Source: a virus
Reading direction: 5' to 3' (one strand)
Length of the DNA stretch: 64,000 bases
Virus record (IMG/VR): IMGVR_UViG_3300040786_000066
The notes under the pieces were generated by a model that saw only the letters and a list, made by a program, of their open reading frames with translations, searched no databases and was not told where the DNA came from. Made by a program: the position numbers and the translations under genes. Shown one piece after another: positions 6,227 through 39,541 of this stretch; within the stretch, counting starts at the first letter, position 1, and each line of letters begins with the position of its first letter.

Positions 6227-6593
6227 TAATATGGAGAACTTCAGAAGAGCTATCCAAGTTTAATAAACCATTTAATAACCAAACCATTATGAAAAGATTT
6301 TGTTTTATTCGTATTGGCTTTCAGTCTGTTTTCCTTTATGGGAGCTAGAGACTATGTGAAGCCTGTTTCAAGTCATGAAGCTGTATTTGTAGGAAGTACT
6401 AACTTTCCCTAAAGATCTACAACGGTACAATCAAAAGCCGAAGTTCCATAAGGAAAGACAAAAGAATTAGAATACTGCAGGCCTCCTTTATAGTTTGGAA
6501 CGAGCCTGAAGTTAGAATTAACATTGTGTATAATATCGTTGCAAGCACAGACTTAAAATCTGGATACTGACAACTATACTATATATAAAATAA

Positions 6594-6652
6594 AAAATAC
6601 CCTTGAGAGGCGAGTGCCGTTTAGGACTCAAGGGTATTTTATTAACATGGGG
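6594..6652 (+). terminator. long hairpin/terminator upstream of the tmRNA locus
   Basis: AAAATACCCTTGAG/CTCAAGGGTATTTT 14-bp inverted repeat. Confidence 0.6.
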
Positions 6653-6708
6653 AGGCAACTAAGCTTTCTAATATTACGAAGCCGTGTAATAATATGCATT
6701 ATAAAAGC

Positions 6709-6791
6709 GGGTAAGTACTCTAGAAAAGGCGTTATTGTTTGTCGCGGTATACAGTCGGCATACAAGATGGGTTCGATTCCCTACCTATCCA
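6709..6791 (+). ncRNA. tRNA-like RNA with Ala-type acceptor (G3:U70, A73)
   Basis: GGGTAAG/CCTATCC acceptor (one mismatch), TTCGATT T-loop, and a long hairpin instead of an anticodon arm. Confidence 0.45.
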
Positions 6792-6792
6792 C

Positions 6793-7062
6793 AAGATTGT
6801 TCATTGACGTATTATGAGTTTTGCAAGACGGGAGTTCGACTCTCCCAACTCCACAAATCGAAGACCGTGTATGTTGTCGATGGTGTAGCTAGCCGATATA
6901 CAAATAGCCGAACTTATGGGGTTGCCTGGTTTTGATTGCAATACACAAGTTTTACTGAGAATAGTCCCAACTATAACTCCAAAAGTTATACAACTTTTAG
7001 TGCAGCTGATTTAGAATTAGCAGCCTAGACGAAACTTGGGGAGCGTCAATCCCCTTATTTTT
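6793..7062 (+). ncRNA. ssrA: circularly permuted (two-piece) tmRNA
   Basis: Acceptor piece first (GACGGGAG-TTCGACT-CTCCC-AACTCC-A, 6827-6853), then a spacer, then the 5' piece GGGGTTGCCTGGTTTTGA at 6918 (G3:U70). P2 TTGCAA/TTGCAA. Tag frame ends ...FSAADLELAA-TAG (7028). Inter-piece pairing TTGACG(6804-09)/CGTCAA(7044-49). Confidence 0.88.
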
Positions 7063-7083
7063 AAACCCTAAATTTATCGATCG

Positions 7084-7425
7084 ATGAAAAACGAAACTCT
7101 AATTAATCCCAAGATTACGAGGACTCGTAATTCTGTGAACGTAAATTGGTTCTCTGTATGTAAAAGTAGCGTTGATAACGTTATTCAAATTACATCAAAA
7201 TCCGAGTTCTTTAACACTCCTCTTGTTTATAAAGTAACAGAGGATTTAATTATACTTAGAAAAGTCACTATACGAGATAACAAAAGAATAGTAGTACCTA
7301 AAAAAGGCCGCGATTCTGAGTTTTATCGCATGAGCATCATAACTAAATTTGAAATCGAAAACAACAGATACGATTTTGAATTTGATGAAGATGATGAGGA
7401 TGTAGTATCTGCTTATTATAAGTAG
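7084..7425 (+). CDS. hypothetical protein
   Basis: Intact 113-aa ORF with an acidic C-terminus inside the ncRNA island. Confidence 0.6.
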   Translation: MKNETLINPKITRTRNSVNVNWFSVCKSSVDNVIQITSKSEFFNTPLVYKVTEDLIILRKVTIRDNKRIVVPKKGRDSEFYRMSIITKFEIENNRYDFEFDEDDEDVVSAYYK

Positions 7426-22428: not shown

Positions 22429-23936
22429 AATAATTATGGAAGTAAAGCTAATTAAAGTAGAAGGCTGTGTAGTCGGCTGGTCTATGGAAGGAGAAAACCT
22501 TGAAGAAATGAAAAACTAGGGGCTATCAGAGACATCCAATTCTTTGGTTTTGAAGATACAGAAATAGTGTACGCAGGTAGAAAAGGCGGTGACTATGTAA
22601 CAGATCCTGGAGTGTTGTCTTGGAAACAAAAAAAGCACGACACTAGCTCCCCAAAAAAATAATGAAAAGCTAGAAGCTACAATAACAGTAGATAACTTAG
22701 TGTCGACCATGAAAACATCAATGCCATCAGAGAAGATCCTAAGAGAACGAATGAAATATTTCGTGCTGCAGGATTTTAGAGGGTATATTGTATACTAGGG
22801 AGGCTAGTACCAGGCAAACAACTTGTCTTTAAAAATATCACTTATGTGGAGATTGGATGGATAGGCCAGAAAAGAATAAAGACCAGAGAACAAACCTACA
22901 TGGAGCTGATGGTAGAAATGATGGAAGAATTCATCAAAGAACTCACTTAATAAATTGACTTATGGAAAAAGAAGTAAATGTTAGAACATACACATACGCT
23001 CAACTAGACTGTAAATATGATGCACTATGTTTAAAAGATAAAAATACAGTGCTTAGAGGAGCTTTAGAATACATGCAGCAGTACAACGGTAGGACTATAA
23101 AACATGCATTTTCATGGCTATGGGCTATGAGGATTGCGTAGGGAAGGAGAATACATAAAAGTAATAGACCATGGGTAACATACAAGAACTGGAAAACAGC
23201 TGGCTGAGGCAAAAGCTGAAGAAAAGAGAAAAGAGCTTCAAACCTTGACAGAAAACCTCATCTCTAAATACCAAGGAAAGCTTACGGGAGTCACAGTTTC
23301 GAAAGAAAAACAGATCAGCGTACGCTTCAGCTGTGTTTTATGAAAAGTTCTGGGTTACAGGCAATACGATAACAGTATTGAAATGGAACATATCCTTTTG
23401 CAGAGCAGGAAGAAATTACAAATTCTCAAGTGATAAGCTGTCTTTGACAGAAACAAAACTGAGGTATCCTCACAGGAGAACGGCTATAGTTTTGAGCACA
23501 ATTTAATAAGTTCAGGCGCCTATGGTAGGGACAAAGAAATGTCCGTAAACAAATTCATGCAACTTTGGGAGTACGGATATTTTGTGGTACAAGAACTAGA
23601 CAACGTATACACAAAACTGTGGGACAGCCGTGGGACTTGACTAGAATGGGCACAGCAACCGATGAACTAAAGTTAGATATAGCTATAAAAGCCACTGGTA
23701 TTGATGTTATAGATATAACAGAAGACTACAAGGTATTCAACGTACTCAAGTATTGTCAGTTACCGTTCTTTCAAGAACAGAAGTATCTGCCTAGAATATT
23801 CGCAGTAAAAATACTCGAATATCAGATATCCAAAATGAAGGAGGATATGGCACATCCATTCTCTACACGCACAGAACACACACGTGGAGAAATTAAAATT
23901 CTAGAAGATTTTATAAAACAATTTAACTCTTACATC

Positions 23937-24842
23937 ATGCAAGTAAAAACGATAAAGAAAATAATCAGTAAAAAAATGATCGACTGGTTAGAAACTATTC
24001 CCAACGAAAAGTTGAGATCTGACGTCAAGAAAAATATCCTCGTATCAGGAGGTTGTATCACATCATTGTTTCAAGGATTACCAGTTAACGACTACGACGT
24101 ATACATTCAGGACATGGATGTTCTGATCAGACTGGCTCAGCATTATTACCCAGGAACAACTACCACAGGTGTTGATAAAGTGCTTGACGGAAGAAAACGT
24201 GAGGACTATCTTAACAATATACAGAGCTCTTTTGAAATTGACGATAACGAATCTGAAGAAGCAGTTCGCTACAAAACACTTAAACTAGATCAAGTCAAAT
24301 TGAACATAAGTTCGATAGGAATGAAAAAAGAGCTGATTGAAGGTAAAAAATACCAGGTTGCTTTCTTTTCCCAAAATGCTATCTCCCTTACAGAAGATTT
24401 GCAGATTGTATTAAGATTCAGTGGTAACGTTACTCAAATTCACAAAACTTTCGATTTCGTGCATGCCACTAACTATTTCACCTTTGAGGAAGGATTAGTT
24501 ACAAACGTAGCAGCACTAGAAAGCATATTGACAAAGTCTTTGAGATACCAGGGATCCTTATATCCTCTTACCTCTGTAATACGTATGAAGAAATTCATAC
24601 AACGTGGTTGGACCGTAAACGCGGGAGAAATCCTTAAGATGTTGTTCCAAGTGTCTGAGTTAGACCTAAAAAACATAGAGGTGCTAGAAGAGCAGCTTAT
24701 AGGAGTTGACGTAGCTTATTTTTCGCTACTGATAACAGTGCTAAGAGATACTGAAGGAAAGCTTACCGCTCATCATTTATCTGAATTGATAGACAAGGTA
24801 TTCAATGAATACGAAGAGCCGGTTGACGAAGAAGTTAAATAA
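23937..24842 (+). CDS. phage nucleotidyltransferase (Pol-beta superfamily, poly(A) polymerase/CCA-enzyme-like head)
   Basis: ILVSGGCITSL...NDYDVY and FDFVHATNYF...R..KF..RGW motifs. The ORF track starts at 23565; the likely start is MQVKT. Confidence 0.75.
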   Translation: MQVKTIKKIISKKMIDWLETIPNEKLRSDVKKNILVSGGCITSLFQGLPVNDYDVYIQDMDVLIRLAQHYYPGTTTTGVDKVLDGRKREDYLNNIQSSFEIDDNESEEAVRYKTLKLDQVKLNISSIGMKKELIEGKKYQVAFFSQNAISLTEDLQIVLRFSGNVTQIHKTFDFVHATNYFTFEEGLVTNVAALESILTKSLRYQGSLYPLTSVIRMKKFIQRGWTVNAGEILKMLFQVSELDLKNIEVLEEQLIGVDVAYFSLLITVLRDTEGKLTAHHLSELIDKVFNEYEEPVDEEVK

Positions 24843-38373: not shown

Positions 38374-39541
38374 ATGGCGCACACAGACAAAACATATAAA
38401 ACCCTCTGTACCAAAATAAACACAGAGGGCAGGTTATATGAAGACAAGAGCAGAAATGTATCTCGTATTCAAATTACGAGTCACACACTGAGACACAACT
38501 TCAGCAATGGTTTTCCGGCTTTATCAGCAAAACAACTCCCTTACAAGTTTGTAAAGGAGAACTGATATGGTTCCTTAGAGGAGACACACATATCAAGTAC
38601 TTGTTAGATAACGGAATTCTATATGGAACAAAGATGCCTACAACCTTTATGTCAAAGTAACTTCAGCAAATCTTGACTCTGATGCAAATCATATGTACAG
38701 AAAAACTTAGATGGAAGCTTCAGTATGTTCAGCATGGAAGAATTCATTCATATAGTAATGCTGCACCCAATTGAAGTTTTGCATGAAGCATTCTCTTACG
38801 AAAGGTATACCATGGGAGATGTAGGTAGAAACTACTCTGCGCAATGGAGAAGCTATAAAGGAGAAGCTATTGCCTATAACTCTGATAATAACAGTTTCAT
38901 TTATGAAAGACATGATCAAATTAAAGAACTGATTGCAGACATGCGCGAAAACATCATGAGTACCAGATTAAAAGTTGCCTCATGGAATCCAAGCGAAATA
39001 AACAAAACAGCGCTTCCTCCATGTCACGACAATTTCCAAGTCATAGGAGTTCCTTTGTTCGATAATGAAATGATCGCTCTAGCCGGAAAGAACGGAGCAA
39101 ATATTTCAAAGCAAATGAAACGCGAAGAGTTAATAAAATGGGTATTCCAGAGTACGGATTTGAAGTGCATTGGGGACAAAGAAGCACAGATACGTTTCTT
39201 GGTTTCCCATTCAACATAGCTTCTTACGCTACACTAGCTAAGATACTTGAAGAAATTACTTTGTTTGTAGCCTTAGGAGTCGAAGGTAATCTAAAATGCG
39301 TTCATTTCTATGACAACCAATTTGAAGCAGTAGAGACCCTATTAAAAGAGATACTGATGTGCACGAAGACTGCACACTGGAGGTTTCTCAAGAATTCAAA
39401 GACCTGTGTCAATTGTTTAGAGAAAATCAAATCACCCTAGACGTATTATTTAATCTAATGAGTATCGATATGTTTAAGCTTAGCGGATACACTTCCGATA
39501 AAGCTATAAGTGTAGAAATGCTTGCACCAATAAAAATATAA
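38374..39541 (+). CDS. thyA: thymidylate synthase (indel-split)
   Basis: GELIWFL.G, G..Y..QWR, ALPPCH, QRSTD.FLGFPFNIASY and HFYDNQ motifs. Confidence 0.93.

Follow-up and report, generated by a model that had tools for sequence, protein, structure and literature searches.

A phage contig recovered from an ice metagenome very probably carries a genuine, functional-looking, circularly permuted ssrA (tmRNA) gene which, judged from sequence comparison, is one of a large family found in Bacteroidota phages. In the window (the whole 64 kb stretch of phage DNA that was analysed) this gene occupies positions 6792-7062 of the + strand, with the acceptor piece first, then a 63-nt spacer, and the coding piece last. 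A first-pass annotation made from the sequence had described a minimal permuted tmRNA in a Bacteroidota-type phage, with the 3' half placed ahead of the GGGGTTG 5' half. Both points are borne out: the T-arm lies at 6830-6846 and GGGGTTG starts at 6918 with the spacer between them, four relatives score above the Rfam cut-off, the helices covary, and cultured members of the family infect Maribacter (phage Panino) and Chryseobacterium (phage MA9V-3).

Nearly all window genes lie on the + strand; RIIA and RIIB are present as fragments, alongside RecT, thymidylate synthase, ligase, a PolA exonuclease, and a primase that is ~34% identical to the primases of crAss-like and Cellulophaga phages. The tmRNA region together with 24 kb of the window gave no DNA-level match to cultured phages at E 1e-5 (blastn and megablast), IMG/VR returned no match to exact 18-20-nt words from the tmRNA gene, and no relatives were found for the ORF at 7084-7425 downstream of it. 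The features of the gene and its immediate surroundings are as follows.

6709-6791, + strand: tRNA-like element with a T-loop motif at 6770; called only by a permissive ARAGORN run
6792-6854, + strand: acceptor piece (Rfam and family alignment, covariation, cofold); ~65 nt once corrected
6795-6802, + strand: distal P2 strand of the acceptor piece (cofold, covariation)
6821-6826, + strand: P2a strand of the acceptor piece, followed by GAC at 6827-6829
6830-6846, + strand: T-arm GGGAG/UUCGACU/CUCCC, a 5-bp stem with a 7-nt loop of the UUCGANY type
to 6852, + strand: acceptor 3' strand, followed by the discriminator A at 6853
6855-6917, + strand: intervening sequence of 63 nt, presumably excised
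6918-7062, + strand: coding piece (Rfam alignment, cofold, partner tests); ~148 nt once corrected
6918-6924, + strand: acceptor 5' strand GGGGUUG with G3
6925-6935, + strand: D-loop analogue CCUGGUUUUGA
6936-6941, + strand: P2a strand of the coding piece
6959-6966, + strand: distal P2 strand of the coding piece
6972-6990, + strand: hairpin with the presumed resume codon in its loop (cofold)
6979-7028, + strand: tag frame, read from the resume position of relatives; stop TAG at 7026-7028
7005-7011/7015-7021, + strand: hairpin inside the tag frame
7038-7062, + strand: terminal hairpin and U-run, GGGGGA/UCCCCC once corrected, GGGGA/TCCCC as given

Detection of the gene and its family

The Rfam model RF04321 (tmRNA_permuted) matches 6796-7028 from model position 1 to 213, scores 40.1 bits there (E = 2e-6 for 901 nt searched, 1.5e-4 for the whole window on both strands) and, under E-value thresholds, is the sole meaningful RNA-family match in the 64 kb. 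The comparison with this model that the first-pass annotation had recommended was successful as regards the end-to-end match, but not the score, which falls short of the gathering value of 47 bits; at gathering thresholds, Rfam reported nothing in the window. ARAGORN, the other recommended program, did not call the gene: its default run found no tRNA or tmRNA anywhere in the window, and the tmRNA gene remained blank after insertion of the missing C, T, G and C (see below), singly or together. Since the program also misses the relative L031, which scores 53 bits in Rfam, the failure in the window is best put down to limited sensitivity of ARAGORN towards this subtype. Among the lineage models run on the window, every clan member stayed below a 22.9-bit partial match to RF00023.

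A 437-aa protein encoded at 23529-24842, used as bait, led to 18 related IMG/VR contigs. RF04321 scores related phage contigs at 63.7 bits (G001, a 75.7-kb genome with terminal repeats) and 73.3 bits (G006), and a conserved-block pattern search added three further contigs with 55.8, 53.2 and 42.8 bits, the last being below 47; the homologues above the cut-off (G001, G006, G011 and G012) span 53-73 bits. A blastn search of the tmRNA against cultured phages pointed to the annotated SsrA genes of Maribacter phage Panino (PP540027.1, 27557-27889) and Chryseobacterium phage MA9V-3 (PV245944.1, 22766-23124), while Tenacibaculum phage Larrie, the nearest cultured relative by the 437-aa protein, gave no permuted tmRNA match. 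ARAGORN calls a permuted tmRNA in six of the eight close members (Panino and MA9V-3 included), the window and L031 being the two that it misses.

A pattern scan of metagenomes for the permuted order returned at least 120 loci. Among the matches listed, 103 have no encoded CCA, many of them with tags such as GKSIQMFNQPLRMVA, VKVINIFSPQLRAVA and DNKVIQLNSVAKVAA; the remaining 17 encode CCA, and their ARAGORN-called tags mostly start with ANDD... or GNDD..., in keeping with the classical lineages. The comparison set used below consists of 101 distinct permuted genes among the matches listed, 86 of which are CCA-less. Overall, the permuted order is common to the eight close members and more than 100 metagenome contigs, and the habitats of the family comprise ice, freshwater, marine, sludge and gut metagenomes. 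One sub-group (L221, L222, L224, L226, L254, L255, L257 and L264) has tags GNNFVTDYTQLAVA or GNTFVTDYTALGAA; the source of L221 is titled human gut metagenome, and L222 is a 99.6-kb contig, crAss-like in size. Our literature search found no published description of tmRNA genes in crAss-like phages.

Base losses, helices between the pieces and the tag

The ThyA gene of the window (38500-39200) is broken across frames at GTAAAGG and ATAAAATGG, so that, for example, FPALSAKQLPYKFV and KGELIWFLRGDT fall in different frames across GTAAAGG. From such single-base frame changes at homopolymers we conclude that the contig has deletion errors of the long-read type. The homopolymer losses are systematic in both regions inspected (6400-7400 and 38500-39200), single-base and once two-base, and many of the short window ORFs are probably artefacts of them. 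Contigs for comparison came from X1, a public ice-metagenome run that holds 76% of sampled window words, and from X3 (ice) and X4 (sediment), which belong to two other studies and hold relatives of the window at 90-95% identity. The runs listed for the window sequence include no RNA run. Over 6400-7400 these contigs show nine insertions and zero deletions relative to the window, five of them inside the tmRNA gene:

behind 6818, + strand: extra T in runs X1 and X4
behind 6843 (C-run 6844-6846), + strand: extra C in runs X1, X3 and X4
behind 6994 (run 6995-6998), + strand: extra T in runs X1 and X3
behind 7037, + strand: extra G in runs X1 and X3
behind 7050, + strand: extra C in one contig each from X1, X3 and X4

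Relatives have C4 at the T-stem/acceptor junction and T5 ahead of the last part of the tag, where the window has C3 and T4; the C that opens the acceptor 3' strand, absent in the window, is present in the X1, X3 and X4 contigs. With the corrections, the T-stem has 5 bp, the acceptor stem 7 bp, and the cofold of the two pieces gains 5 kcal/mol. Homopolymer deletions in the assembly, rather than biology, account for both the shortened T-stem/acceptor junction and the interrupted tag frame. The single indel that the first-pass annotation had suspected behind an ambiguous tag start is real (the extra T in X1 and X3) and one of several such deletions.

The corrected acceptor stem GGGGUUG/CAACUCC with G3.U70, followed by A6853, is the alanine identity set; CCA is not encoded, the acceptor strand being followed by ACAA. 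Among the matches listed, this stem is complete in 98 of 101 genes, and its pattern-free positions vary and yet pair: position 5 is G-C in 48, C-G in 22, A-U in 14 and U-A in 12, and position 6 is U-A in 77, C-G in 15 and A-U in 7. G3.U70 was fixed by the search pattern in the wider set, so only the eight close relatives are independent for this pair. The T-stem is fully paired in all 101 genes among the matches listed (22 sequences); when the partners are shuffled, 3.8 of the 5 pairs form.

Cofolding the corrected pieces without constraints yields P1, the T-arm, P2a, distal P2, the resume hairpin, the tag hairpin and the terminal hairpin. That P2 joins the pieces, as originally annotated, is supported both by the cofold, which recovers its two parts, and by partner tests among the matches listed: P2a (6821-6826/6936-6941) reaches -5.6 kcal/mol with the true partner vs -4.0 with those of other members (p 8e-9), and pairing between the leader and the stretch of the coding piece 8-50 nt past the D-loop analogue is weakly better when the partner is the true one (p 0.004). 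In distal P2 (6795-6802/6959-6966) both sides change between members, the strands being GAUUGUUC/GAAUAGUC in the window, AAAUUUGUUC/GAACGAGUUU in Panino, AAUUAAGUU/GACUUAAUU in L034 and UUCGUC/GACGAA in MA9V-3. A second inter-piece pairing that had been proposed, TTGACG (6805-6810) with CGTCAA (7044-7049) in the loop of the terminal hairpin, has its letters in the window but is not conserved. CGTCAA occurs in none of the six relatives' trailers checked, L035 keeps the TTGACG leader while its terminal loop is ACGAAA, and in a leader-trailer duplex the true partner is no better than a mismatched one (p 0.11, among the matches listed). The predicted partner of the leader is instead 6959-6966 of the coding piece, i.e. 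distal P2.

As given, the PKVIQLF segment and SAADLELAA* lie in different frames, and the missing T joins the two. Adding the read-supported T to the run 6995-6998 turns the tag into PKVIQLFSAADLELAA*, which ends in SAADLELAA as first annotated, the frame closing at TAG 7026-7028. The window codon at the homologous resume position (6979-6981) is CCA, in agreement with the X1 contigs, and the resume codons of relatives start with G (GCA, GAA, GAC, GGU, GGA, GGC); from the sequence, resumption one codon after CCA is possible. Where a pseudoknot PK1 would be expected, ahead of the tag, the cofold shows hairpins only (6972-6990, or alternatively 6960-6964/6970-6974). In all relatives an open tag frame leads from the G-starting codon via K-(V/S/T)-I-(N/Q/E)-(L/M)-(F/N) to the stop, with length changes in multiples of three. 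Dozens of members spell the same tag peptide with different codons; in L245, for example, KSIQMF is encoded although the hairpin sequence is missing. Conservation at the peptide level, in-frame length changes and different codons together are evidence that the long tag is translated. A start of the relatives' tags at GGA/GGU (GNEAKLAA) was considered and dropped because the upstream KVI(N/Q)(L/M)F is conserved as a peptide, in frame and with varied codons.

The terminal hairpin at 7038-7062, which is kept among relatives with differing stem sequences, is the only terminator-like site within 6300-7400, and it is likely to be both an intrinsic terminator and the 3' end of the coding piece. The compact size of this piece (~145 nt in the earlier description) holds, with 6918-7062 coming to ~148 nt after correction.

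The state of the window as given could suggest a decaying pseudogene whose tag is frameshifted and whose T-stem/acceptor junction is damaged: PKVIQL and SAADLELAA* are out of frame, the junction is one base short, and the gene is below the threshold in Rfam and missed by ARAGORN. However, the extra C appears in X1 (the same ice sample, at a word depth of ~380) and in two other studies, and the extra T in X1 and X3; the same single-base losses at homopolymers occur elsewhere (ThyA), and nine insertions relative to the window fall within 1 kb. Moreover, strain variants differ less in the gene than downstream of it, the listed differences for X3/X4 being 5 per 244 nt of gene vs at least 13 per 230 nt downstream. 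As the C and T are restored in independent contigs, we count the pseudogene reading out as highly improbable. There is next to no probability that we are dealing with an attachment-site remnant or a misassembly, in which a host tmRNA 3' end would have been copied before unrelated sequence. The acceptor piece does closely resemble Flavobacteriia tmRNA genes at their 3' end, and phage att sites are often in ssrA (PMC4383910), but the 5' half, the P2 partner and the tag frame are all present and covary with the 3' half, and the order recurs in over 100 independent contigs as well as in the finished genomes of two cultured phages. Short contigs from independent runs also span the piece junctions. 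Together with the cultured-phage genomes, these contigs show that the assembly rearrangement named in the first-pass annotation as a possible cause of the order is not the explanation.

A further alternative, which we consider unlikely, is a decoy RNA that would titrate host SmpB or block host trans-translation without tagging, a role proposed for the tRNA-like-domain-only RNA of mycobacteriophage DS6A (PMC4131195). It would agree with the lack of a phage smpB, the compact form with hairpins only in the cofold, the unusual first codon CCA, and tRNA-like halves that closely mimic the host type. On the other hand, the tag frame is conserved as amino acids, with in-frame length changes and different codons in dozens of members, and the tags have Ala-rich C-termini followed by a stop, a pattern expected only if the frame is translated.

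Surroundings of the gene and its proposed working

The tRNA-like element at 6709-6791 has no Rfam tRNA match at E<=1, and its place is occupied by an ordinary tRNA in L034, L033 and Panino. A gap of 3-4 nt separates its 3' end from the tmRNA leader; processing at that end would therefore also produce the 5' terminus of the acceptor piece. The X1 contigs have no correction in 6700-6795, and sequencing errors therefore fail to explain the element. Seven T-loop motifs of the form GGTTCGAnTCC are found on the + strand of the window (6204, 6770, 8441, 19786, 31872, 32330 and 36158; chance expectation 1.4), each of which precedes an acceptor-like 3' strand, in several cases followed by ACAA. Despite these motifs no tRNA was found in the window by default ARAGORN or by the Rfam tRNA model (E<=1); relatives have ordinary tRNAs at places corresponding to the motifs. 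In L031 and L032 TAAATTTG or TATATTTG lies between a terminator hairpin and the conserved leader GUUC(A/G)UUGA, ~10 nt ahead of the latter. This fits TAnnTTTG, the promoter box of Bacteroidota, and suggests that the leader of L031/L032 is the 5' end of a primary transcript.

The spacer contains a hairpin with the stem 6888-6891/6905-6908 and the 13-nt loop GCCGAUAUACAAA at 6892-6904. Among the matches listed, the loop GCCGAUAUAYAAA is kept in 9 of the 86 CCA-less members (the window, L031-L034, L171, L191, L196 and L236) with differing stems, and an upstream hairpin bearing CCGUGUA is also predicted in most of these nine spacers. Conserved structure inside a supposedly discarded segment is unexpected. 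The X1 sample also holds a variant with 6670-6760 swapped for 90 other letters, as well as a second related tmRNA gene with a spacer like that of L033 (aligned at 6914-6951); several related tmRNA-bearing phages therefore coexist in the ice sample.

The absence of smpB from the window, noted in the first-pass annotation, was confirmed with two flavobacterial SmpB probes (best tblastn E 0.13), and SmpB is likewise absent from five whole relative genomes; as none is encoded, function would depend wholly on the host. The homologues of the 437-aa protein (23529-24842, + strand) are named tRNA nucleotidyltransferase in some phage records, and we considered it as a phage CCA-adding enzyme. This assignment was dropped: the protein has no match in Pfam, NCBIfam or PDB sequences, a protein atlas groups it with Gad2 (Gabija anti-defence 2, PF26128; score 0.97), and the tmRNA genes of the hosts likewise lack a full CCA. 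It is likely a Gad2-type anti-defence protein of the nucleotidyltransferase fold.

From sequence we infer a working scheme that comprises cleavage into two RNAs, charging, tagging and a benefit to the phage. A + strand transcript would join the upstream tRNA-like element and the tmRNA gene, and the precursor would be cut by tRNA-processing enzymes of the host, with 3' processing of the upstream element freeing the leader. RNase P would cut ahead of G6918 and a 3' endonuclease past the discriminator near 6853, releasing the 63-nt spacer, and the host CCA-adding enzyme would finish the 3' end; the tmRNA genes of Bacteroidota also lack a full CCA. The ~65-nt and ~148-nt pieces would be held together by the 7-bp acceptor stem and by P2 (6821-6826/6936-6941 and 6795-6802/6959-6966). 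Host AlaRS would charge this RNA via G3.U70 and A73, and host SmpB would bring it to stalled ribosomes, where translation would resume in the loop of the 6972-6990 hairpin and add ~16 residues ending in LELAA up to the stop TAG at 7026-7028. Finally, the LELAA-ended tag would mark the protein for host proteases.

Origin and comparison with known tmRNAs

Bacteroidota hosts use one-piece tmRNA, as the first-pass annotation had stated: Table S2 of PMC11915505 lists 24,380 standard and 48 permuted tmRNA instances in 29,415 Bacteroidota genomes. A scan of the 5' motif GGGGNNGNCUGGUUUUGA over one genome per prokaryote species gave at least 120 loci; 82 among the matches listed are standard one-piece genes by ARAGORN with GENNYALAA-type tags, nearly all of these, among the matches listed, from Flavobacteriaceae and other Bacteroidota. 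The Bacteroidota genes end in ...CUUGUUUGGAC, the T-arm and CNNCUCCAC, followed by non-CCA sequence. Several members of the phage family, such as L034 and L274, are nearly the same as Bacteroidota one-piece tmRNA in both halves. In pattern-free columns, 85 of the 86 CCA-less permuted genes among the matches listed resemble the Bacteroidota standard more than the CCA-encoding permuted set (mean identity 0.63 vs 0.54, among the matches listed). The window itself is equivocal (0.667 to the Bacteroidota standard vs 0.643 to the CCA-encoding permuted type); its identity test is weak, and the argument on origin rests on the family rather than on this member. The lineage models RF01849, RF01850 and RF01851 reject the relatives, with best beta_tmRNA scores of 46.8, 34.9 and 27.5 bits vs a cut-off of 84.

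The Bacteroidota-like halves, the rejection by the lineage models and the figures of 24,380 vs 48 make an independent permutation, separate from the classical lineages, plausible at the sequence level. This part of the original proposal is accordingly plausible from the tRNA-like halves and model scores but unproven, as the informative sequence amounts to ~60 nt. That is too little to settle between ancestry and convergence, and convergence on the requirements of host SmpB, AlaRS and RNase P could also explain the likeness to Bacteroidota. Our broader suggestion, that the family represents a fourth independent tmRNA permutation, derived from a host-type one-piece gene in phage genomes, whose tag (and, in the sub-clade, spacer) might give it a phage-specific role instead of just more rescue capacity, is tentative and somewhat doubtful.

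Permuted tmRNA has so far been regarded as marking three bacterial lineages and the phages infecting them. The phage form described here is two-piece and ~215 nt in total, as compared with 362-399 nt for the one-piece form of the hosts, whose tRNA-like part it copies. If its permutation is separate, it would represent a natural experiment in shrinking and rearranging a tmRNA that still uses host SmpB, AlaRS and RNase P, and the two members in cultured phage-host pairs make maturation, tagging and fitness directly testable. On the practical side, ARAGORN misses some members, some fall below the Rfam cut-off, and GenBank records have no permuted flag; long-read homopolymer errors can mask permuted tmRNA genes, of which the window is a documented case. 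The window adds a new member and a sub-clade with a conserved, structured spacer.

The novelty had been overstated in the first-pass annotation. Published work already covers two-piece tmRNAs of phages: PMC9004378 describes 53 unique phage structures, mostly marine, discusses them within the three classical lineages, and lists Cellulophaga phage phi4:1 as permuted in its Table S1. For Cellulophaga phage Calle one tmRNA gene is reported, its form not being stated. Our literature search found no published description of the CCA-less Bacteroidota-phage family or of its mismatch with the form of the host. The gene itself is of a known kind; the lineage to which it belongs is common and so far undescribed.

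The closest known genes are those of Panino and MA9V-3, which share with the window the permuted order, a GUUUGGAC...CUCCAC acceptor piece without CCA, a hairpin around the resume codon, and tags of the same type (GKVMNVSFAPTVRQFA and GNVIDINKYVAKLEVAA, respectively); Panino also shares the leader motif UUCAUUGAC. Both genes sit among or beside tRNA genes. Their spacers differ, and the sub-clade of the window has the conserved GCCGAUAUAYAAA loop. The GenBank records of both phages are silent on the permuted form, and the Panino paper treats the SsrA gene only as a possible integration aid.

The tmRNAs of marine myophages (Methylophilales phage Melnitz, pelagimyophages and cyanophages; PMC9004378) are similarly permuted and come without smpB. 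As in the scheme proposed here, tRNA-processing enzymes would cut them, and their presumed role is to support or redirect ribosome rescue during infection. However, they group with alphaproteobacterial and cyanobacterial lineages and match the form of their hosts, whereas the hosts of the Bacteroidota-phage family use the one-piece form. A glutamine riboswitch was not found in an Rfam scan of the 64 kb. Two-piece tmRNA is known from Alphaproteobacteria, some Betaproteobacteria and Cyanobacteria (Keiler 2000; Sharkady & Williams 2004, as cited in PMC9004378). The gene topology of this classical type (RF01849-RF01851) is shared by the window, whose tRNA-like domain would likewise assemble in trans and whose pseudoknot content may likewise be reduced. 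The D-loop analogue, on the other hand, is UGGUUUUGA in the Bacteroidota-phage family and UGGUUUCGA in classical two-piece tmRNA; in the metagenome set the classical type encodes CCA and has ANDD...-type tags, as opposed to no CCA, a Bacteroidota-like tRNA domain and xKVIxxF...LRAVA/LAA tags in the phage family.

The one-piece tmRNA of Bacteroidota (362-399 nt as measured here) has in common with the phage family the 5' end GGGGNNGACUGGUUUUGAC(AGC) and the 3' end ...UUGUUUGGAC-T arm-CNNCUCCAC without a full CCA. Its P2a AGCAAG/CUUGUU is also found in the phage family, the window having the variant type GAUUGCAA/UUGCAAGAC. In contrast to the phage form, it carries a long pseudoknot-holding segment. 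Its tag GENNYALAA differs from that of the phage and, in line with the first-pass annotation, is shorter.
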